A DNA stretch of 64,000 nucleotides. Source: a virus. A program made the position numbers and the translations under genes. Below, piece by piece: positions 21,447-40,555 of this stretch. The stretch is from the IMG/VR virus record IMGVR_UViG_3300027418_000370. One strand, given 5' to 3'. The notes beneath the pieces were generated by a model, which saw only the letters and a program-made list of their open reading frames with translations, did not search any database and was not told where the DNA came from. How positions within the stretch are numbered: the stretch's first letter is position 1; each line of letters begins with the position of its first letter.

Positions 21447-21943
21447 TGGCAAATACTTGTAGAACAGATGTAAAAATTGTTGCTTCAAAAGAAGCAGTTG
21501 ACTTTTTGTATGGAAAGTTTGAAAATATGAATGATGGGAAGTATCCAAATGAAAAGGAAACTCCACATATTGTAGATGTATTTGGTGCTGATGCTGAATT
21601 ATTTATTGATAAAGTAGGTTCAAAGTGGATTACAATTTACGATTATAGCACCTATGAGAATGAATTTGAAGTTAGCTTTGAATCAGCTTGGTATCCACCA
21701 TCAGATCTATTGAAAGAAATGCATCGACAGTTGATGGCTATTGATCCGGATGCTACATTTACAGCACGTTATTGGGATGAAGCATACGATCCTATTGGAG
21801 TAATTAAGATTACAGATGCCGGCCAGTACCTAACTGTTGAGACCGAACCTGAGCCTGAAGACGAATTCGAAGGTGAGTACTACTGGGATGATGTAATCGA
21901 TCCAGAGTTTGCTCGACTAGAAAGAAAATTAGGAATAGCGTAA
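21446..21943 (+). CDS. Hypothetical protein (DUF1281/YubB-like C-terminal motif)
   Basis: MANTC...GSKW...FESAWYPP...YWDE pattern. Confidence 0.5.
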   Translation: MANTCRTDVKIVASKEAVDFLYGKFENMNDGKYPNEKETPHIVDVFGADAELFIDKVGSKWITIYDYSTYENEFEVSFESAWYPPSDLLKEMHRQLMAIDPDATFTARYWDEAYDPIGVIKITDAGQYLTVETEPEPEDEFEGEYYWDDVIDPEFARLERKLGIA

Positions 21944-21987
21944 GCCTATACGCTTAAAATACCTGGCAGTTATAAATTATATTTAAA

Positions 21988-22812
21988 ATGGCAAAACACG
22001 TTGTTGTTAGTCTTTCAGGAGGGATGGACTCCTCTACGTTACTTCTAAAAGCTCTTAAAGAGTTTGATACAGTAACAGCAATGTCTTTTGATTACGGTCA
22101 AAAGCACAGAGTAGAGCTTGAAAGAGCTCAAGAGTTGGTAAAGTACTTGAGTGATAACGGTCACTCTGTTAATTACCGAGTAATCAAACTAGACGGCTTG
22201 GTTGACCTGCTCAACTCGGCTCTAGTAACAGGTGGTGCTGAAGTACCTGAAGGTCATTACGCAGAAGAGAATATGAAAGCTACTGTTGTACCGAACCGAA
22301 ACAAAATCTTCAGTTCAATTTCTCAAGCTGTAGCACTTTCTATTGCAAATGAAACTCAGGAAGAAACTTCCATTGCGTTGGGCATTCATGCTGGTGATCA
22401 TGCGATCTATCCGGACTGCCGACAGGAATTTCGGGATGCAGATGACGCTGCTTTCCGCACTGGTAACTGGGACGCTGAGCGCGTATCTTATTGGACTCCT
22501 TATCTTGAAGGCGATAAGTTTACTATTCTAGAAGACGGACTGGTATTATGTGAGAAGCTAGGAATAGACTTTGATGAAGTTTATAAGCGTACTAACACCT
22601 CTTATAAGCCAATCAAGTACTATCACCGTCCAGAGACTAATGCCTGGACTTGGTACTCAGACTACAAATCAGCTTCTTCAGTAGAGCGTATTGAAGCTTT
22701 TATTAAGCTAGGACGACCTGATCCTGTAGCGTACGCTGATGAGACCGGCCCAGTGAGCTGGGAGGTAGCACGTGAGCATGTTGAAAAAGTTTTAGCAGCA
22801 CACGCAAATTAA
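21988..22812 (+). CDS. queC: 7-cyano-7-deazaguanine synthase
   Basis: SLSGGMDS, FDYGQKH, VPNRN, YPDCRQEF. Confidence 0.95.
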   Translation: MAKHVVVSLSGGMDSSTLLLKALKEFDTVTAMSFDYGQKHRVELERAQELVKYLSDNGHSVNYRVIKLDGLVDLLNSALVTGGAEVPEGHYAEENMKATVVPNRNKIFSSISQAVALSIANETQEETSIALGIHAGDHAIYPDCRQEFRDADDAAFRTGNWDAERVSYWTPYLEGDKFTILEDGLVLCEKLGIDFDEVYKRTNTSYKPIKYYHRPETNAWTWYSDYKSASSVERIEAFIKLGRPDPVAYADETGPVSWEVAREHVEKVLAAHAN

Positions 22813-22813
22813 T

Positions 22814-22843
22814 TAGGGGGGAGCTTGTCTCCCTCCCTATTTA
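22814..22843 (+). terminator. Putative terminator hairpin after queC
   Basis: taggggggag-cttgt-ctccctcccta followed by ttt. Confidence 0.55.
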
Positions 22844-22856
22844 TTCTTATATTAAG

Positions 22857-22886
22857 AGTGTCGGAGCACCACTATAAAAACACCGG
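22857..22886 (+). ncRNA. Candidate preQ1 class I riboswitch aptamer (copy 1)
   Basis: P1 AGUG/CACU, loop UCGGAGCAC, tail AUAAAAACACCGG directly abutting ATG 22887; located just after a promoter. Confidence 0.6.
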
Positions 22887-23480
22887 ATGAAAAAGTTACT
22901 ACTATTATTACCTCTGCTCTGGGCTTGTGAAACGATTGAGCCCTATGTTCCTGAACCTTGTCAGGAATGTACTACTATTCATAGAGTAGATACTATTCAA
23001 CATCCTGGAACTTATTATCAAGACGGATACTGGCATTTACAATATTCAGGTATAAATTACTTCCAGGTTATCGGTCAGTTAGATTCCCTACATCCTCAAT
23101 ATGTTATAAATGGAGTACCGCTACTTCAAGTAGTATATGATAGCGATACCTGGTATGTATTTGATACCATTGCTATGCAAATACCTCTGTACTCTCCATT
23201 TACTTCCCAATATACTTCCCCAAGCTTTAATTACCCTATCTCAACAGGAGATACTACAATCTATATTACAAATCCTAACTACATTATAAATGCAGTAGGT
23301 TATACGTTTGGAAGTACAAACTTTGTGAATGCTATGCACACATACCAGCCCCGGTGTGAAGTACTGGTGTTTGAAGAGATGGTGGGAGATACGATTAATG
23401 TCTTCACAAGAACGCGTTATAACTACGATCTAGGTACTCAGATAATAGTAAACGATACAATTAAAGTTATAGTAGAATGA
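22887..23480 (+). CDS. Hypothetical lipoprotein
   Basis: MKKLLLLLPLLWA-C lipobox. Confidence 0.6.
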   Translation: MKKLLLLLPLLWACETIEPYVPEPCQECTTIHRVDTIQHPGTYYQDGYWHLQYSGINYFQVIGQLDSLHPQYVINGVPLLQVVYDSDTWYVFDTIAMQIPLYSPFTSQYTSPSFNYPISTGDTTIYITNPNYIINAVGYTFGSTNFVNAMHTYQPRCEVLVFEEMVGDTINVFTRTRYNYDLGTQIIVNDTIKVIVE

Positions 23481-23683
23481 AAAAACAGTTATTAGTAGAG
23501 CCTGTTCTTCCGAAAAGTAAGAACATTGAAAAGATGCCTGATCAGAAATGGCATCAAATTATCTCATTTATTAAATCCGGAGTCCGTATTCTTGGTTACG
23601 CACTGCTTATTGTTGATATCCCAACAGCAATGGTGGTACTGGTCTTGAGTGAGGCAGTCGGCATAATCGAAGAATTAGTATGA
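23477..23683 (+). CDS. Small membrane protein
   Basis: Hydrophobic C-terminal half. Confidence 0.55.
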   Translation: MKKQLLVEPVLPKSKNIEKMPDQKWHQIISFIKSGVRILGYALLIVDIPTAMVVLVLSEAVGIIEELV

Positions 23684-23940
23684 AGTATTTGTATTTCTCA
23701 GCACCTTGGTGCGGTCCTTGTAGAATGTTAGGTCCAACAATGGAAAAAGTAGCAGCAGAAGGAATTGCTGTAGAAAAAATTAACATCGATACGGAAGAGC
23801 TCCTAACGATGGAATACACAGTCCGCAGTGTACCTACTGTAGTACTGATTGATGATTCTGGAAAAGAATTTGCTCGTACAGTTGGCGCTAAGCCATTAAG
23901 TCACTATATTGAACAATATAATAATTTTACAAATGTATAA
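23680..23940 (+). CDS. Thioredoxin
   Basis: WCGPC active site, SVPT cis-Pro motif. Confidence 0.9.
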   Translation: MKYLYFSAPWCGPCRMLGPTMEKVAAEGIAVEKINIDTEELLTMEYTVRSVPTVVLIDDSGKEFARTVGAKPLSHYIEQYNNFTNV

Positions 23941-24391
23941 GTCAAGAAAGAAGTTTGATGGCTTTAGTACTTGCTTCCGTCAATGGAAAGCGAATACTAC
24001 ACACTGTCAGTACCTACACGGCTATGATGTAGAGTTTGAAGTAACGTTTGAAGGAGATCTCGATCACCGTAACTGGGTATGGGACTTCGGAGGTATGAAG
24101 CGAGCTAAGAACCTGATCGACGGTATGCAACCTAAAGAATGGATGGAGCATATGTTCGATCATACTGTAGTTGTAGCAGAAGACGATCCTGAACTAGATA
24201 ACTTCAGAGATATGGCCGACAGAGGCGTTATTCAGTTACGAGTAGTAGAGGCAGTAGGTGCAGAGAAATTTGCTGAATTTCTTTACCACAAGCTAAATGA
24301 CTTCGTACAGACAGAGACAGACGGCCGAGTTAAGGTCATTAAAGTTAAATTTATGGAGAACCACAAAAACTCAGCAATCTATGGCGCTTAA
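23933..24391 (+). CDS. queD: 6-carboxy-5,6,7,8-tetrahydropterin synthase
   Basis: CQYLHGY, WVWDFG, FDHT, AE motifs; ATG at 23933. Confidence 0.9.
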   Translation: MYKSRKKFDGFSTCFRQWKANTTHCQYLHGYDVEFEVTFEGDLDHRNWVWDFGGMKRAKNLIDGMQPKEWMEHMFDHTVVVAEDDPELDNFRDMADRGVIQLRVVEAVGAEKFAEFLYHKLNDFVQTETDGRVKVIKVKFMENHKNSAIYGA

Positions 24392-25157
24392 GAGAATTGA
24401 AGATTATAATAAGGTACTGCCGATTGTAGAGCTTTACCGATGTGTACAATCAGAGGGTAGTCGTTTTGGACGTCCTACTATCGCTGTACGTACTACAGGA
24501 TGTACTCACCGCTGCTACTTCGGTGAAGGAGGTTGGTGTGATAGCTGGTATACCTCTATCCATCCAGAGAAAGGTGGTTATTCATTTAACGATATTATTA
24601 AGATTTACGATGAGAATCCTCACGTAAAGGAGATGATGCTAACAGGAGGTAGCCCAACAATGCACCCAGCCTTAGTAAATGAGATTACTCACTTTGCTAA
24701 AGAAAGAGGTATTATTGTTACTATTGAGACTGAAGGTTCTCACTTCCTTGAGACGGACTATCCTCTTGATCTTATCTCTCTATCTCCTAAGTTCTCTAAT
24801 AGCGTACCCGTAGTAGGAGCTGTTACACCTCAAGGCGCTATTGCAGATGAGAAGATGATTAAGCAACATAACAAGTTCCGTATCAACAAAGATGCTATCC
24901 GTCAGACTTTGGACTATCATACTGATTACCACTTTAAGCCGGTATGGGACGGTAGCGCAGCGAATCTAGTAGAGATTGAAGCATTTAGGGTTGAGATGAA
25001 TATTCCTAAAGACAAGACTTTTGTTATGCCTGCAGGTGATACTCGTGAGACTTTAATTGAAATGTACCCAATCGTATTTGAGATGTGTGCCGAGCACGGT
25101 TACAATATGACCGGACGTGATCACATCATTGCCTACGATACTAAGAGAGAAGTATAA
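24381..25157 (+). CDS. queE: 7-carboxy-7-deazaguanine synthase (radical SAM)
   Basis: VQSEG..GRP, GCTHRC-x7-CDS, LTGGSP, IETEG, SLSPK. Confidence 0.92.
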   Translation: MALKRIEDYNKVLPIVELYRCVQSEGSRFGRPTIAVRTTGCTHRCYFGEGGWCDSWYTSIHPEKGGYSFNDIIKIYDENPHVKEMMLTGGSPTMHPALVNEITHFAKERGIIVTIETEGSHFLETDYPLDLISLSPKFSNSVPVVGAVTPQGAIADEKMIKQHNKFRINKDAIRQTLDYHTDYHFKPVWDGSAANLVEIEAFRVEMNIPKDKTFVMPAGDTRETLIEMYPIVFEMCAEHGYNMTGRDHIIAYDTKREV

Positions 25158-27734: not shown

Positions 27735-28224
27735 CGCAAAGGATATTGATATCCAAACTAAGATCATCGCTAAGAAGATCTCAGCAGAGCACAATGGAGA
27801 TAAAACTCCAATCGTTATGGTAGGGTTATTGAATGGAGCATTTATGTTCTATGCAGACCTAGTACGCAACATTACAGTAGACGTAGAATGTGATTTTATG
27901 AGAATAAGATCATACGTCAGTAAAAAGAAACAAGGTGATATTCAGATCACCAAAGACTTAGAGACGCCTGTTAAAGGAAAGCACGTCTATATCGTAGACG
28001 ACATTTACGATTCGGGTAATACAATGGATGCTGTGATTGAATACCTTCAGGTCAAACACCCAGCCTCGATTAATATTGTTACTCTACTGACTAGAGAAAC
28101 TTCTAGGATACCCCCAGTACCTTCCTATCATGCATTCACTATCAAGGATGAATGGGTAGTAGGCTTTGGAATGGATAACGATAAAGGTTATGCAAGAAAT
28201 TACAGAAGTGTGTTTGCACTCTGA
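27718..28224 (+). CDS. hpt: Hypoxanthine-guanine phosphoribosyltransferase-like protein
   Basis: GLLNGAFMFYADL, PRPP motif IVDDIYDSGNT, WVVGFGMD. Confidence 0.9.
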   Translation: MQQLIDAKDIDIQTKIIAKKISAEHNGDKTPIVMVGLLNGAFMFYADLVRNITVDVECDFMRIRSYVSKKKQGDIQITKDLETPVKGKHVYIVDDIYDSGNTMDAVIEYLQVKHPASINIVTLLTRETSRIPPVPSYHAFTIKDEWVVGFGMDNDKGYARNYRSVFAL

Positions 28225-28247
28225 AATAGTTTTCGTATATTAATAAG

Positions 28248-28277
28248 AGGTGTCGAAGCACCACCTAAAAAAACAAA
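28248..28277 (+). ncRNA. Candidate preQ1 class I riboswitch aptamer (copy 2) upstream of folE
   Basis: P1 AGGUG/CACCU, loop UCGAAGCAC, tail AAAAAAACAAA; lies between a promoter (28213-28241) and the folE ATG (28282). Confidence 0.7.
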
Positions 28278-28281
28278 TTAT

Positions 28282-28992
28282 ATGGCAGATAAAAAACGTT
28301 ATGATGTAGAACTCGCTCAAGCCGGGTTCGCTAATGGTGTCTCTTCTCAACTGGCTGAGAAGTTTAAAGTTCATTCTATGAACTCTATGCACTTAACAGA
28401 TCAAGAGAAGCATACTATTATTGAGAATGCTGCAAAGGCATTCGGAGAATTCCTAGATGCTCTAGGATGTGACTGGCGTGATGACCCTAACTCATCTGAT
28501 ACTCCTCGTCGAGTAGCTAAGGCTTATGTAAACGACTTATGGGCAGGACGATTCAATCCTATGCCTGAGATCACAGCCTTCCCTGCTGATGGTTATGATG
28601 GTATTGTATTTGAGGGTAATATTCCTTTGACCTCGATGTGTTCGCATCACCACCAGACTATTCAAGGTCGAGTTCATATTGCTTACATTCCAGGTCCTGG
28701 AGGTAAGGTAATCGGTCTATCTAAGCTCAATCGTATTGTAGAGCATTTCGGACGTAGAGGTGCTATTCAAGAGCAGCTTACTGTTGCTATTCATAATGCA
28801 GTTCATACTGTTTGTGAAGGTAATGTAGGTGTAGCAGTTATGGTAGAAGCTACTCACAATTGTGTATCATGCCGCGGTACTAAACACGCTGGTGCGTCAA
28901 TGAAGACTTCTAAGCTATCAGGTAGCTTTATGTACGAAGACTCAGCACGAGCAGAATTTTATGAATTTGTTAAAGGTTACGCATGCAAATGA
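28282..28992 (+). CDS. folE: GTP cyclohydrolase I
   Basis: DTPRRVAK, SMCSHH, IGLSKLNRIV, QEQLT, HNCVSCRG. Confidence 0.95.
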   Translation: MADKKRYDVELAQAGFANGVSSQLAEKFKVHSMNSMHLTDQEKHTIIENAAKAFGEFLDALGCDWRDDPNSSDTPRRVAKAYVNDLWAGRFNPMPEITAFPADGYDGIVFEGNIPLTSMCSHHHQTIQGRVHIAYIPGPGGKVIGLSKLNRIVEHFGRRGAIQEQLTVAIHNAVHTVCEGNVGVAVMVEATHNCVSCRGTKHAGASMKTSKLSGSFMYEDSARAEFYEFVKGYACK

Positions 28993-29495
28993 AACGAGCA
29001 AAAAGTGTCCCATTTATCGACGAAGTAGAGATCTTCAACGATACGTTCGGTAAGCCGAACAATTACACTCCTATTATTCCTAATGATAAGAAACTTACTA
29101 ACTTCGTAGTAGATTTTATTAAAGAAGAGACTGACGAACTAGCACACGCTATTGAAGAGAAAGATATTGTAGAAGTACTAGATGCTATCTGCGATCTACT
29201 TTACGTAGCTATTGGAAATGCTACCATGGTGTTTGGATTGAAGAATAAGATCGTACCAGCTTACCGAGAGGTACAGGCATCGAATATGTCTAAGAGCTGT
29301 GCGACTGTAGAAGAAGCAGAAGAGACTATTGCTCTCCGTTCTCAACAGCACGGCGAGTGTTACTTCCGTAAGGTGGGAAACCGTTATGTTGTTTATCGCA
29401 AAGCGGACGATAAGGTTATGAAATCTATTAACTACTTCGCTCCTAATCTTGAGCAGTTCTTTACTCCAGAAGAAATCGAAAACGCTAAGCAATGA
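28983..29495 (+). CDS. MazG-like/PRA-PH nucleoside triphosphate pyrophosphohydrolase
   Basis: IKEETDEL, EVLDAICDLLYV, VQASNMSK. Confidence 0.85.
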   Translation: MQMKRAKSVPFIDEVEIFNDTFGKPNNYTPIIPNDKKLTNFVVDFIKEETDELAHAIEEKDIVEVLDAICDLLYVAIGNATMVFGLKNKIVPAYREVQASNMSKSCATVEEAEETIALRSQQHGECYFRKVGNRYVVYRKADDKVMKSINYFAPNLEQFFTPEEIENAKQ

Positions 29496-29689
29496 GTCCA
29501 AAAGAACTGGTAGAACAAAATAGTATCTTCTTAGAAGACCTACAACGCTGGGTTGTACCTTTAGAAGTAGTAGAGGAAGCCTTGCAGATCAAGAGCGCTA
29601 AAGAGCTTGAAGATAATTTAGGTAAACTTCAAGATAGTATGTTAGAATTAAACAAGTTATTTAACGATTTAGGAAACGCCAATGGTTAA
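29492..29689 (+). CDS. Hypothetical protein
   Basis: Small coupled ORF. Confidence 0.5.
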   Translation: MSPKELVEQNSIFLEDLQRWVVPLEVVEEALQIKSAKELEDNLGKLQDSMLELNKLFNDLGNANG

Positions 29690-30509
29690 GATTGCACACG
29701 AGAGTCCTATTGCTAGCTTTGACACTATTCAGCAGTATACGGATTATGATTACGCTTTAGTACATCTCTTTGAAGAGAACGAAACTTATTTAGATAAGTT
29801 TGTAGAAGCACGAGATAAAGGACGAGAGATTATTCTCGATAACTCTATCTTTGAATTAGGAAAAGCTTTTGATTCAGAACGCTTTGCTTTCTGGATTGAT
29901 TATTTAAAGCCTACCTGGTACATCGTACCTGATGCATTAGAGAATGTAAAGCGTACTTGTGCTAATATGGCTGAGTGGAACTTTAAGTATGCAGATCATC
30001 TAGCAGCACCTAGTAAAAAGATTGGAGTACTACAGGGAAAGACTTACTCTGAGCTTATCAATTGCTATGACTACATGATTAATATAGCAAAGGTAGATAT
30101 GGTGGCTATCTCTTTCGATTACAGTTATTACGAACAGCTCGTACCACACCCTAACAAGTATGTTAGCTGGATGCTAGGCAGAGTTGTGCTCTTAGGTAAG
30201 ATGTTACGTGATGGAGTAATCAACCCAGATATCCCTCACCACCTACTAGGCTGTGGACTTCCTCAAGAGTTTGCTTTCTATAAAGACTACGATTGGATCT
30301 ACTCACTAGATACTTCTAACCCAGTAGTACACGGTTTGTTGGGAATCGAGTATAAAGATCAAGGGTTGTGGGATAAGGCATCAATCAAGTTATTTGAGAT
30401 GATTAATATGACTCCTACCTCTGAGCAGGTTACTTCAGCAGTTTATAATGTTCAACGCTTTAGATGGTTCGCACATGGTAGCAACTCGTCCGTGGATAGC
30501 ATTCTTTAG
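29682..30509 (+). CDS. dpdA: DpdA-like 7-deazaguanine transglycosylase (TGT fold, probably DpdA3-type)
   Basis: TGT-barrel motifs ILDNSIFE, IVPD, GVLQG, HHLLGCG, SLDTS; no Zn-binding CxCxxC of tRNA TGTs; sits among que genes. Confidence 0.75.
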   Translation: MVKIAHESPIASFDTIQQYTDYDYALVHLFEENETYLDKFVEARDKGREIILDNSIFELGKAFDSERFAFWIDYLKPTWYIVPDALENVKRTCANMAEWNFKYADHLAAPSKKIGVLQGKTYSELINCYDYMINIAKVDMVAISFDYSYYEQLVPHPNKYVSWMLGRVVLLGKMLRDGVINPDIPHHLLGCGLPQEFAFYKDYDWIYSLDTSNPVVHGLLGIEYKDQGLWDKASIKLFEMINMTPTSEQVTSAVYNVQRFRWFAHGSNSSVDSIL

Positions 30510-31035
30510 TCAGACTGGATCTGAGATTGTTCAGGTTAGTAAGCAGTTAGGTCGCTGGCCTGACCTTATTATTACTAATATCAGGCCTTCTCATTTACGT
30601 ACTATACATCCTGAGATTCCTACAGACCTATTAAAGTATACTCAGAATAGACCTGAGGAGCATGAGCTTGTATGGCTGATGAGTGCAATAAGTGATAACC
30701 CTGTTGTAACTTTACACGGATGGTTAAGAGTAATGCCTGCTTCTATCTGTAATCGCTATGAAATCTATAACGGACATCCAGGATTGATTACTAAATATCC
30801 AGACCTAAAAGGAAAAGATCCTCAATATAGAGCCTGGGAAGGTAACTATAAGACTGCTGGCTGTGTTATTCACAAAGTAACTGCCGGAGTAGATGAAGGA
30901 GAAGTTCTAGTGGAGCGAGAAAGTATACATAAGATGTTGCCTAAGAACGATATTTTTCGTATCTTACATGACACATCAGTAGAGATGTGGATAGAATTTT
31001 TACATAATAAACTATGGTTAGACGAATTGCATTAG
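30475..31035 (+). CDS. PurN-like formyltransferase (DpdN, putative dPreQ1 formyltransferase)
   Basis: FFSQTGS, LHGWLRVM, NGHPG, GCVIHKVTAGVDEG formyltransferase motifs; overlaps the dpdA-like gene. Confidence 0.8.
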   Translation: MVATRPWIAFFSQTGSEIVQVSKQLGRWPDLIITNIRPSHLRTIHPEIPTDLLKYTQNRPEEHELVWLMSAISDNPVVTLHGWLRVMPASICNRYEIYNGHPGLITKYPDLKGKDPQYRAWEGNYKTAGCVIHKVTAGVDEGEVLVERESIHKMLPKNDIFRILHDTSVEMWIEFLHNKLWLDELH

Positions 31036-31532
31036 TAGGAGCTAGTAGTACTGGTAAGACTACTGTGTATGAGTTATTGAAAGCTAAACTACCTAAGTAT
31101 GAGTTTATTAACGAAAGTACTCGTACGGTAGCTAAGTTTGGCTTTCCTATTAACGAAGCAGGTACTACTGAGACTCAGTTAGCTATTTCTTCTTTTCACT
31201 TAGAGGCTTTGCTTAAGCCTCATAGTTTGATTCTAGATCGTTGTTATCTAGACTTAGTTGTATACTCTAAGCATATGCCTGCTTTATCTTCTCAAGGCTT
31301 AGACTTTATTGAAGATACTTGGACTAGAGTGCAGGATGAGTATACGCACTATATTTATTTCCCTATTGAATTCGATGCTGTGGATGATGGTCAGCGCAGT
31401 GTAGATGAAGCTTGGAGAAAGATTATTGATGAAGAGTTTAAGTATCAACTCGATTTAACTGACCGTCATTATTTAACTGTTACTGGCTCACCATTGCAGC
31501 GAGTAGATCAAATTTTAAAATACATAAAGTAA
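31014..31532 (+). CDS. P-loop nucleoside/nucleotide kinase-like protein (AAA_28/NadR type)
   Basis: IALVGASSTGKTT, LILDRCYLD, DDGQR. Confidence 0.75.
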   Translation: MVRRIALVGASSTGKTTVYELLKAKLPKYEFINESTRTVAKFGFPINEAGTTETQLAISSFHLEALLKPHSLILDRCYLDLVVYSKHMPALSSQGLDFIEDTWTRVQDEYTHYIYFPIEFDAVDDGQRSVDEAWRKIIDEEFKYQLDLTDRHYLTVTGSPLQRVDQILKYIK

Positions 31533-32447
31533 ATGGAAGAAGTAAAGAACTACAATGCAGTCGTTGAGATTGCTGGTAAACACCTCGGTAAGGTAGGTGG
31601 AGAAGGTTACTCAGATCAGTACAATGCTGAGTTGCTAGTAGCAGTACCTCGTTATTTAAACCGAGAAGCTTACGGAATTGAGGAGAGTAATCTTCCATTC
31701 GTAGGAGTAGATGCTTGGAACGCTTATGAAGTTTCAGCTATTACTAAAAAAGGTCAGCCTGTAGCAGGTATGTTAAAGATTGTATGCCCAGCTAATACAG
31801 AGTTTCACGTTGAGTCAAAGTCTATCAAATTATACTTGAACTCTTTGAATATGACTCCGATGGGTCAGACAGCTAAGGAGTGTATCAAGGAGATTGAAAC
31901 AACAGTAGCTAAAGACCTAACTGACCTACTAGGAGGAAATGTAACCTGTACCTTCTTCGGCAATACATACACTCCAGAGTTTGAGTTTGATGGCTTTACA
32001 GACTTAGGTGCAACAGTAAACCTTGACAACATTGAGTTTACAGCCTTTAAGTCTGATGCAGGTCAGCTTGAGATTGGCGGCAATCTTCCAATGTCTGTTA
32101 CAACTAAAGTAAGTTCTAACTTGCTACGTAGTAACTGCCGAGTAACTAACCAGCCTGACTGGGGTGATATCTACATCCATATGCAAGGTCATAACTCAAT
32201 TAAGCTTGAGTCACTAGCCAAGTATATCGTTAGTCACCGTACAGTATCTCACTTCCATGAAGAGATCTGTGAGATGGTATTTACTCACCTTCAGCAAGCC
32301 TATCAACCTGAGAAGCTTATGGTAGCATGTTTATATACACGTCGTGGTGGATTGGATATTAATCCTATTCGAGCTACACATAAAGATATGATCCCAGGAT
32401 GGTTTACTGATTCGGGTAAACGAATGAGAAAAACTTTACGTCAATAA
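31533..32447 (+). CDS. queF: NADPH-dependent preQ0 reductase (bimodular type)
   Basis: VESKSIKLYLNS, RSNCRVTNQPDWG, FHEEIC, YTRRGGLDINP. Confidence 0.95.
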   Translation: MEEVKNYNAVVEIAGKHLGKVGGEGYSDQYNAELLVAVPRYLNREAYGIEESNLPFVGVDAWNAYEVSAITKKGQPVAGMLKIVCPANTEFHVESKSIKLYLNSLNMTPMGQTAKECIKEIETTVAKDLTDLLGGNVTCTFFGNTYTPEFEFDGFTDLGATVNLDNIEFTAFKSDAGQLEIGGNLPMSVTTKVSSNLLRSNCRVTNQPDWGDIYIHMQGHNSIKLESLAKYIVSHRTVSHFHEEICEMVFTHLQQAYQPEKLMVACLYTRRGGLDINPIRATHKDMIPGWFTDSGKRMRKTLRQ

Positions 32448-39338: not shown

Positions 39339-39424
39339 GCTACTGTGGTGAAATAGGTAGACACGAGGGACTTAAAATCCCTTGGCCAGTGATGGTCGTG
39401 CCGGTTCGATTCCGGCCAGTAGTA
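39339..39424 (+). tRNA. tRNA-Leu(TAA)
   Basis: Acceptor gctactg/cagtagt, anticodon arm aggga-cttaaaa-tccct, long variable arm, ggttcgattcc. Confidence 0.92.
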
Positions 39425-39442
39425 CACGGAAACCCATATACG

Positions 39443-39453
39443 GTTCTTTGACA
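39443..39453 (+). promoter_or_regulatory. boxA-like antitermination site
   Basis: GTTCTTTGACA in the first tRNA spacer. Confidence 0.5.
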
Positions 39454-39470
39454 TGTTGGATAGATAGAAT

Positions 39471-39552
39471 GCGGATGTGGTGTAATTGGTAGCCACGCCA
39501 GACTTAGGATCTGGTGCTTAATCGCGTGGGGGTTCGAGTCCCTTCATCCGCA
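39471..39552 (+). tRNA. tRNA-Leu(TAG)
   Basis: Acceptor gcggatg/catccgc, anticodon arm ccaga-cttagga-tctgg, ggttcgagtcc. Confidence 0.92.
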
Positions 39553-39669
39553 CATAATGAGAGGAGGAAAAGGTAAAATCCAAAGGTACGGTCGACGGGT
39601 CGTTTAAAACCTGAGGTACGGACTCTGATGCTGTAAGCGCGCTAAAGGAGTGAAGCCTCTCTATAATAT

Positions 39670-39743
39670 GGTCCGATAGCTCAGCTGGATAGAGCAACAG
39701 CCTTCTAAGCTGTCGGTCGAAGGTTCGAATCCTTCTCGGATCA
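39670..39743 (+). tRNA. tRNA-Arg(TCT)
   Basis: ggtccga/tcggatc, acagc-cttctaa-gctgt, ggttcgaatcc. Confidence 0.93.
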
Positions 39744-39835
39744 CTACGCAGTCAGATGCATCTGGTTTCTCTATTCCATTTAAAGATAGAGTGGAGCTAC
39801 AGTGGCAGGTTATGGTTGTCCTCTAACAACCAGCT

Positions 39836-39908
39836 CGGGATGTGGCGCAAGTGGTAGCGCACCTGGTTTGGGACCAGGGGGTTGGAGGTTCGAGTCCTGT
39901 CATCCCGA
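39836..39908 (+). tRNA. tRNA-Pro(TGG)
   Basis: cgggatg/catcccg, cctgg-tttggga-ccagg, ggttcgagtcc. Confidence 0.92.
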
Positions 39909-39930
39909 CTAATTATTAAATGTTTTAAAC

Positions 39931-40095
39931 ATGAAAACAATCATTAAGTACTTCTTTCCGGTAATGTACCTGCTTTACATTGTAGGTATTGGTTTAAACG
40001 TATCAGTTGGCGACTATTCAGATGCTGGCTGGATCTTCAGCGCACTACTCTGGATGTTTAACTACCATATGCTTTACCTAAAGATTACTAAATAA
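39931..40095 (+). CDS. Small membrane protein (54 aa) within the tRNA cluster
   Basis: MKTIIKYFFPVMYLLYIVGIG...WIFSALLWMF; two hydrophobic stretches; below the ORF-track cutoff. Confidence 0.5.
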   Translation: MKTIIKYFFPVMYLLYIVGIGLNVSVGDYSDAGWIFSALLWMFNYHMLYLKITK

Positions 40096-40224
40096 AGAAC
40101 CCAGACGTGTGCAAAGAGACTGAGTCTAGCCTCTAAATCCACTTCGGTGGTTGACTTTCGGGAAAAGATAGTGAGTGGGGAGTACGCCTACCGGACGGCG
40201 TCTCATTGATAACCTCCCCTATAA

Positions 40225-40297
40225 GCCTCCTTAGCTCAGTTGGTAGAGCCACTGATTTGTAATCAGTAGGTCGTTGGTTCGAGTCCGACAGGAGGCT
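40225..40297 (+). tRNA. tRNA-Thr(TGT)
   Basis: gcctcct/aggaggc, actga-tttgtaa-tcagt, ggttcgagtcc. Confidence 0.92.
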
Positions 40298-40392
40298 CAG
40301 AGAGTAGGACTAATAGTTCAGCATACCGCTGCAGCGGTAAAAGTAAGTTGCTGTTAATAGGACGCCGAATCCTAACGCCTATTCTTTTTTAC

Positions 40393-40475
40393 TGGAAGGT
40401 GGGTGAGTGGTTAAAACCGGCAGACTGTAAATCTGCTCCCTTACGGGTACGGCAGTTCGAATCTGTCCCTTCCAA
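40393..40475 (+). tRNA. tRNA-Tyr(GTA)
   Basis: tggaagg/ccttcca, gcaga-ctgtaaa-tctgc, variable arm, agttcgaatct. Confidence 0.9.
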
Positions 40476-40481
40476 CAAATT

Positions 40482-40555
40482 GCGCTTATAGCTCAGTTGG
40501 TTAGAGCATCCGACTCATAATCGGCAGGTCCTAGGTTCAAACCCTAGTAGGCGCA
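40482..40555 (+). tRNA. tRNA with CAT anticodon (probably Ile2/lysidine, otherwise Met)
   Basis: gcgctta/taggcgc, ccga-ctcataa-tcgg, ggttcaaa T-loop; overall resemblance to bacterial Ile2 tRNAs. Confidence 0.85.

Follow-up and report, generated by a model that had tools for sequence, protein, structure and literature searches.

The RNA element described here is best compared with the class I preQ1 riboswitches (preQ1-I). According to a 2024 review, the alpha-mode pocket of this class contains a specificity base, a cytosine that directly precedes the 3′ strand of stem P1 and pairs with the ligand, together with U6 in L1 and the adenine that ends the A-rich loop L3; the floor of the pocket is the G-C pair that closes P1, and the O6 of its G contacts the 7-aminomethyl group of the ligand. 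The same review separates type II members, bearing AC before the P1 3′ strand, from type I members, which bear UC at this place and UU after the P1 5′ strand. The aptamer of T. tengcongensis (Tte) was published as CUGGG-UCGCAGUAAC-CCCAG-UUAACAAAA-CAAGGG, with the P2 pairs G11:C30 and C9:G33, and the version of it quoted in an earlier, sequence-only reading of our locus matches the published one. A second point of reference is the Flavobacterium phage immuto, whose DNA is fully substituted with fdPreQ1 (formyl-preQ1), not dPreQ1. In the published description of the immuto gene cluster the word ‘riboswitch’ is absent and no regulatory RNA is mentioned; the word does not occur in the key deazaguanine-phage literature either, and in a full-text literature search we met no preQ1 riboswitch described for phages or Flavobacteria. 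The same type of search found no described riboswitch for phage DNA hypermodification, as the earlier reading had supposed.

The locus lies in a virus sequence of 64,000 nucleotides (IMG/VR record IMGVR_UViG_3300027418_000370); this whole stretch of DNA is called the window in the following and all coordinates refer to it. The element, AGGUG-UCGAAGCAC-CACCU-AAAAAAACAAAUUAU, occupies positions 28248–28281 and is followed by the ATG of folE at 28282; reading the window and the FolE family match listed below confirmed both positions as they had been given before. At 28213–28241, where a promoter had been placed, there is indeed a promoter-like site, TTTGCA-17-TATATT. Such sigma70-like sites are not enriched over shuffled sequences (23 found vs 17.5 ± 4.8), and the transcription start is undetermined. 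The parts of the folE leader are as follows:

28213–28241, + strand: promoter-like site TTTGCA-17-TATATT, from a consensus scan
28248–28252, + strand: P1 5′ strand AGGUG, with the conserved core 28249–28252; G28252 is the pocket-floor G (G5 equivalent)
28253–28261, + strand: loop UCGAAGCAC, mapped onto Tte and type II features; L1 is U28253 (U6 equivalent) and C28254, the P2 5′ strand is G28255–G28258 with G28258 as G11 equivalent, L2 is C28259 and A28260, and C28261 is the equivalent of the specificity base (C15)
28262–28266, + strand: P1 3′ strand CACCU
28267–28273, + strand: L3 A-tract AAAAAAA; its final A is the equivalent of the ligand-contacting L3 adenine, a role taken from the 2024 review
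28274–28277, + strand: candidate P2 3′ strand CAAA; C28274 is invariant and the equivalent of C30, pairing beyond this G-C is not shown
28282–28992, + strand: folE (GTP cyclohydrolase I), PF01227 at 1.6e-43; the start codon lies 7 nt past the tail C

This first copy of the element spans 28248–28277, and its conserved P1 consists of 4 bp (28249–52 with 28262–65). The key class I positions named in the sequence-only reading are all there: the closing G-C pair, the U and C that open the loop, the loop G with its tail C and the last loop C. Every alpha-mode pocket position listed above is kept, and the AC signature of type II is found in addition.

Taken as a single sequence, the folE leader does not stand out. 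The minimum free energy of its fold is at chance level (z = −0.55), and the hairpin shows no exceptional stability. The Rfam model for preQ1-I (RF00522), which had been proposed as a check, scores the folE copy at 9.8 bits against a gathering threshold of 39 (E 2.7–4.8), and here the expectation failed. Despite this sub-threshold score the folE copy is the top RF00522 match in the whole 124.7-kb genome and is sensibly aligned; the second copy of the element described below is not listed by RF00522 at E ≤ 10. An Rfam search of the window in gathering mode returned tRNAs alone (seven tRNA genes are clustered at 39339–40555 on the + strand), and permissive searches of a 201-nt and a 53-nt stretch gave noise-level matches only. 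Apart from RF00522, the matches listed at E ≤ 10 belonged to the unrelated families SprC, ALIL, mir-1923, Histone3, U1 and snR33, and neither preQ1-II, preQ1-III and THF-II (the folE motif) nor any other Rfam 15 family matched beyond noise. For 16 representative viral loci Rfam likewise gave no riboswitch match, and none of them reaches the RF00522 threshold. The single-sequence statistics, being at noise level, are what a chance resemblance without function would produce; they are not what the element rests on, which stands above chance through the comparison across homologous leaders and through a second leader of the same pathway.

The failure of RF00522 weighs less because Tte-like type II elements of Bacillota themselves reach only 30–37 bits on this model, below the cut-off of 39. 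RF00522 is biased toward type I, and standard annotation under-detects the type II subgroup. The sub-threshold Tte-like elements (L424, L425, L427, L428, L435 and L436) come from Bacillota genomes and precede an ATG; they follow the pattern G-UCGCAG-N(2–4)-AC-C...A(n)-CAAGGAGG. We built a type II model, R2, from Tte and four of the Bacillota sequences; L424 and L436 were excluded because MAFFT had aligned them out of register. Its best match in the 64-kb window is 28248–28276, correctly aligned, at only 9.1 bits (E 2.2), and the second copy is not listed. Conversely, a covariance model made from 28 distinct phage sequences (R1) re-found 6 sites in 12 genuine Bacillota PreQ1 loci, but at 10–17 bits, which is the false-positive level. 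Formal membership in preQ1-I is not established; no bacterial model scores the site significantly.

Among FolE-anchored viral loci, 26 of 80 carry the element before folE. The five-pair P1 of the sequence-only reading holds for its inner part: the inner four pairs are formed in all 28 distinct sequences, with compensatory changes at two positions (A-U in 12, G-C in 12 and U-A in 4 at one, U-A in 21 and A-U in 7 at the other), and the closing G-C pair is invariant. The outermost pair A28248–U28266 did not hold, as it can form in just 5 of the 28, and P1 has 4 bp in most members. The covariation score of P1 is 0.41 compared with 0.13 in shuffles, was reached by none of 500 shuffles, and collapses in slid registers. 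Context-free pattern scans of viral contigs with a stem filter extended the collection to at least 169 motif instances with at least 76 distinct motif sequences in at least 98 distinct contexts; five stem variants occur among the 98 contexts listed. Across 76 distinct sequences each position of the loop U-C-G-N-A-G-N-A-C (UCGNAGNAC) is conserved to 98–100%, as are the five As of the tail A(5)CA, whose C is found in 100% and the following A in 98%. The first loop U and the specificity-base C directly 5′ of the P1 3′ strand are present in every sequence. AC precedes the P1 3′ strand in 98%, with one UC variant (L040), and L1 opens with UC, not UU. All positions of the phage motif conserved to at least 98% are identical in Tte. 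A lack of conservation of stem and A-tail in homologous leaders had been set beforehand as a condition that would refute the element; the opposite is clearly the case, with a covarying stem and a loop and tail at 98–100%.

The situation is different for P2, the formation of which remains an inference. The loop G and the tail C are both invariant and hence uninformative, and beyond this G-C pair we found no robust covariation in either the 28- or the 76-sequence set. The best register is the one that corresponds to Tte C9:G33; here N9 and C+3 can pair in 55 of 76 sequences and every G9 faces C or U, with p = 0.013 for the 76 sequences (uncorrected for six registers) and p = 0.23 for the set of 28. 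The observed element is nevertheless real and not a product of chance. Compensatory changes, 76 distinct sequences, a strict association with certain genes and an excess of viral over cellular occurrences (see below) effectively refute the chance reading, the likelihood of which we regard as negligible.

R1 finds exactly two matches in the 124.7-kb genome, one in the folE leader (47.1 bits) and one before a block of genes that ends with queD-queE (43.6 bits); nothing else appears at E ≤ 10. This block opens with an ATG at 22887, and the last nucleotide of the second copy is 22886. Two operons of one pathway share the element, which looks like a regulon. The features around the second copy and downstream of folE are listed here:

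21988–22812, + strand: queC, PF06508 at 2.6e-38
22816–22836, + strand: terminator-like hairpin between queC and the second copy, with 8 pairs (6 G-C) and a T-rich tail
22825–22853, + strand: promoter-like site TTGTCT-17-TATATT upstream of the second copy, ending 3 nt before the P1 core
22857–22886, + strand: second copy of the aptamer, AGUG-UCGGAGCAC-CACU-AUAAAAAC-ACCGG; P1 is AGUG (22857–60) with CACU (22870–73), the loop UCGGAGCAC is 22861–69, L3 AUAAAAA is 22874–80, and the tail C22881 is followed by ACCGG
22887–23480, + strand: 197-aa ORF, the first gene behind the second copy
23477–23683, + strand: conserved small ORF of 68 aa
23680–23940, + strand: thioredoxin
23909–24391, + strand: queD
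24297–25157, + strand: queE
28983–29495, + strand: MazG-like
29682–30509, + strand: DpdA, 65% identical to the phage immuto protein
30448–31035, + strand: DpdN formyltransferase, 59% identical to the phage immuto protein
31014–31532, + strand: P-loop kinase-like
31533–32447, + strand: QueF

Together with genes for ThyX, a thioesterase, a nuclease and an HPRT-like protein, the surrounding genes constitute an immuto-type 7-deazaguanine cluster. The 197-aa ORF, which separates the aptamer from the small ORF, has a signal-peptide or lipoprotein-like N-terminus (MKKLLLLLLPLLWAC...); no family match was obtained for it, and apart from this phage we saw it in the closest relatives (L197 and L222) alone.

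The association with this pathway extends over the whole collection. Among the 98 contexts listed, 45 place the element before folE, which is then followed by mazG, dpdA and dpdN, and 52 place it either before a 65–92-aa ORF followed by queD-queE or directly before queD or queE; in the remaining one it precedes an unassigned ORF, where the nearest pathway match is mazG-like. In all listed contexts the element is on the strand of the gene, with the ATG 4–12 nt past the tail C, and a TAnnTT box is located upstream in 96 of the 98, mostly 13–15 nt before the stem core. R1 scores are bimodal, either 37–55 bits or nothing. Complete relatives of 156–191 kb have one or two sites each, with a single one in immuto (the folE copy) and none in phiST. 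A BLAST search of the queDE-type leader against cultured phages gave no match, possibly owing to the low-complexity filter.

Could the element be a 5′ structure that senses nothing and came to two operons through duplication, serving for instance in mRNA stabilisation, RNase processing or transcription initiation? A short hairpin at predicted transcript 5′ ends for which no ligand has been proven would fit. A generic element of this kind should, however, occur at many genes, whereas we see one or two per 125–190-kb genome, always at this pathway. Moreover, nine unpaired loop and tail positions stayed near-invariant while the stems changed across lineages, which points to a specific role in tertiary structure or ligand binding. 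We therefore give this explanation little credence.

In the cellular genomes searched the element was not found beyond chance level. A scan with a stem-containing pattern through 596 Gb of sequence from 185,579 bacterial and archaeal species yielded 13 stretches, about the number expected by chance, compared with more than 116 in viral sequences. The sole genuine case among the 13 is L321 (NYWG01000135.1), a 5.9-kb contig labelled as a Verrucomicrobiales MAG; it carries both aptamer copies as well as the phage-type order small ORF-queD-queE-folE and is probably a phage contig mis-binned into a bacterial MAG. An Oscillospiraceae MAG stretch (L325) was rejected as a cellular copy, being GC-rich and without queuosine context, and L328 and L329 were dismissed as host-lineage copies, as they lie inside coding regions. 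In 151 genomes of Flavobacteriales (the order of a Chryseobacterium anchor) there was no RF00522 match above the cut-off and no genuine R1 match. Within what was searched, the element is confined to phages.

Hairpins combined with an A-rich tract at the start codon are typical of phage translational operators. The element could accordingly be a binding site for a phage or host RNA-binding protein that acts in the manner of T4 RegA or gp32, its likeness to preQ1-I being coincidental: a hairpin and a single-stranded A-rich tract abut the start codon, P2 is unproven and the bacterial riboswitch models do not score the element. Furthermore, a conserved small ORF of 65–92 aa without annotation is the first gene behind most queDE-type copies, upstream of queD, and might supply such a protein. 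Examples of this ORF are window 23477–23683 (68 aa) and L063:649–906 (85 aa); no Pfam, NCBIfam or PHROG family was assigned to it. It is absent at the folE copies and in some queDE operons (L167, L217 and L267), and hence there is no consistently co-occurring partner protein. In addition, the conserved single-stranded bases match those of the preQ1-I pocket and of the type II signature one for one, and the genes that carry the element are exclusively ones for making the ligand of precisely this riboswitch class. On balance we consider a protein operator unlikely.

We regard as the probable explanation a phage-specific, preQ1-I-like translational OFF switch that exerts feedback control on the genes for fdPreQ1 DNA modification. 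A feedback switch of the preQ1-I kind had also been put forward in the sequence-only reading; conservation, gene context and pocket speak for it, the Rfam score and the weak P2 covariation do not. The name riboswitch is itself an inference, as there are no binding data. Under the OFF-switch model two mRNAs, folE-mazG-dpdA-dpdN and (small ORFs)-queD-queE, would carry the aptamer at their 5′ end or close to it. With the TAnnTT box mostly 13–15 nt ahead of the stem core, transcription is inferred to start at or just before P1 at most loci. At the second copy, where only 3 nt separate the end of the TATATT box from P1, a start at E. coli spacing would truncate P1. A free 7-deazaguanine base that accumulates would be sandwiched between two base pairs, the closing G-C of P1 and that of loop G with tail C, and three bases would read it: the loop C, the U that opens the loop and the last adenine of L3. 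That this base is preQ1 and/or preQ0 is inferred from the pocket, in which none of the bases for reading the guanine-like face and the aminomethyl group has changed. On binding, the A-tract may dock along P1 while the tail folds back, giving the predicted H-type pseudoknot. The folded state would hide the A-rich single-stranded initiation region and lower translation, and the synthesis of precursors would thereby be matched to their use by DpdA.

Bacteroidota initiate translation on A-rich unstructured leaders, and the absence of Shine-Dalgarno sequences is expected for their phages. The direction of regulation is likewise deduced, not measured: translational OFF control is most likely since there is no room for a terminator before the ATG, no Shine-Dalgarno sequence is present, and the A-tract and tail, which the bound pseudoknot would hold docked, lie inside the region engaged by the 30S subunit. 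Occlusion of the initiation region in particular is suggested by the distance of only 4–12 nt between tail C and AUG together with the lack of a Shine-Dalgarno sequence.

The same fold and logic could serve a different natural ligand of the pathway: preQ0 alone, for example, or formyl-preQ1, provided that the free base is a substrate of DpdN, or some other deazaguanine substituted at position 7. The DpdN cluster is commoner at motif-positive folE loci (17 of 22) than at motif-negative ones (6 of 38), and the modified base in immuto DNA is fdPreQ1, not dPreQ1. L2 is also one nucleotide shorter than in the collected bacterial type II examples, and the bacterial models fail from divergence; the short L2 and the absent Shine-Dalgarno part of P2 might reflect a changed pocket. 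The DpdN enrichment could, however, be due merely to common ancestry of the cluster, and the bases for the guanine-like face, the minor-groove edge and the contact to the 7-aminomethyl group are unchanged, which favours preQ1 or preQ0. We thus see only a small chance that another ligand is the natural one.

Motif-negative folE loci (a subset of L022–L085) differ in gene layout. Many have the order folE-queD-queE-thioredoxin-HPRT, and their folE starts right after a TTTG...TATATTA promoter-like region, without the aptamer. At other motif-negative loci folE is internal to dpdA-queF-dpdN-kinase-folE.

A different H-type pseudoknot was observed in the leader of queC, at 21937–21967 in front of the queC ATG at 21988. 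It is composed of the following parts:

21937–21942 with 21949–21954: P1
21943–21948: loop AGCCUA
21955–21964: L3 UAAAAUACCU
21965–21967: P2 3′ strand GGC

This structure is present in 45 of 73 distinct queC leaders. A context-free scan gave 123 instances, with queC as the next gene in 118 of them. Both helices covary: P1 occurs in six or more versions, some of them with G·U pairs, and P2 has variants such as GCC/GGC, GGCCC/GGGUC, GCUAC/GUAGC and GAAAGC/GCUUUC. In a gapless subset 95% of the cells are paired, and the observed score was reached by none of 500 shuffles. L3 always ends in AUAC(C)U, with U where preQ1-I has the specificity C. The queC pseudoknot has no Rfam match and occurs once in this genome, and no genuine match was found in the 151 Flavobacteriales genomes. 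Matches of the queC-element model (R3) there, at 19–28 bits, were rejected, as they are driven by AAUACCUGGCA and lack the helices and queC. A TATATT box (21978–21983) is located between the pseudoknot and the ATG, and the place of the pseudoknot in the queC mRNA is unmapped. We propose it as a candidate for a new riboswitch class or a regulatory pseudoknot. It is conceivable, though at present we would rather doubt it, that the phage controls its 7-deazaguanine cluster by RNA alone with two aptamers, the preQ1-I-like one on folE and queD-queE and the undescribed pseudoknot on queC, the latter sensing a different intermediate. If this two-aptamer reading is true, the phage would meter successive steps towards its hypermodified base with separate riboswitches that are absent from cells.

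To our knowledge riboswitches are rare in phages, and we know of none linked to a phage's own DNA hypermodification. If the preQ1-I-like switch is confirmed, phages that replace every G with a 7-deazaguanine derivative would meter the precursors by a protein-free sensor, and the smallest known riboswitch fold would be extended to mRNAs without a Shine-Dalgarno sequence. It would then have to be asked by what means a class I preQ1 pseudoknot can block initiation on leaders of the Bacteroidota type. For annotation the results reveal a blind spot: Rfam misses the phage variant and under-scores type II members. Owing to its small size and divergent periphery the element should be useful for studies of aptamer specificity and as a regulatory part for Bacteroidota. 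It is directly testable, as the cultured phage immuto carries it and the fdPreQ1 content of its DNA has been measured.

How does the element relate to systems already described? Other sensor candidates carried by phages before auxiliary genes, all cited in a single paper, are glutamine riboswitches, known from cyanophages, pelagiphages and phage Melnitz, and a psbA-associated element of cyanophages. They belong to another class with another ligand, can be detected with standard models, and none is known to be linked to the phage's own DNA base modification. Nearer in gene content are the Flavobacterium phage immuto isolates, the nearest cultured relatives of this phage (folE 73% identical at the nucleotide level). 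Their cluster has the same gene order of HPRT-like, folE, mazG-like, dpdA, dpdN, kinase-like and queF, and the element is found in the folE leader; immuto has one copy and this phage two.

The closest likeness is to preQ1-I type II. Shared features are the H-type layout of ~33 nt with P1, L1 UC, a P2 5′ strand GNAG, an L2 ending in AC, an A-rich L3, the tail CA and the loop-G/tail-C pair; both precede genes of preQ0/preQ1 synthesis, and the phage element adjoins the start codon as translational members do. It is best placed with the preQ1-I kind as a new variant specific to phages, with ligand binding, P2 and the transcription start not shown. It differs from the family consensus, which has a P1 of 5 bp, in its conserved P1 of 4 bp. 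Its loop is 9 nt long compared with 10–12 nt in bacterial type II members, and its L2 is one nucleotide shorter than in every bacterial example collected. The bacterial tail is the same up to CAA and then runs into a Shine-Dalgarno sequence, whereas the phage tail becomes AU-rich and variable; no AAGG or GGAGG Shine-Dalgarno sequence was found in the P2 3′ half of the phage tails, and GGAG occurs in L040 alone. Finally, preQ1-I in bacteria controls the synthesis and salvage of tRNA queuosine, while the phage element is attached to a pathway of DNA hypermodification.
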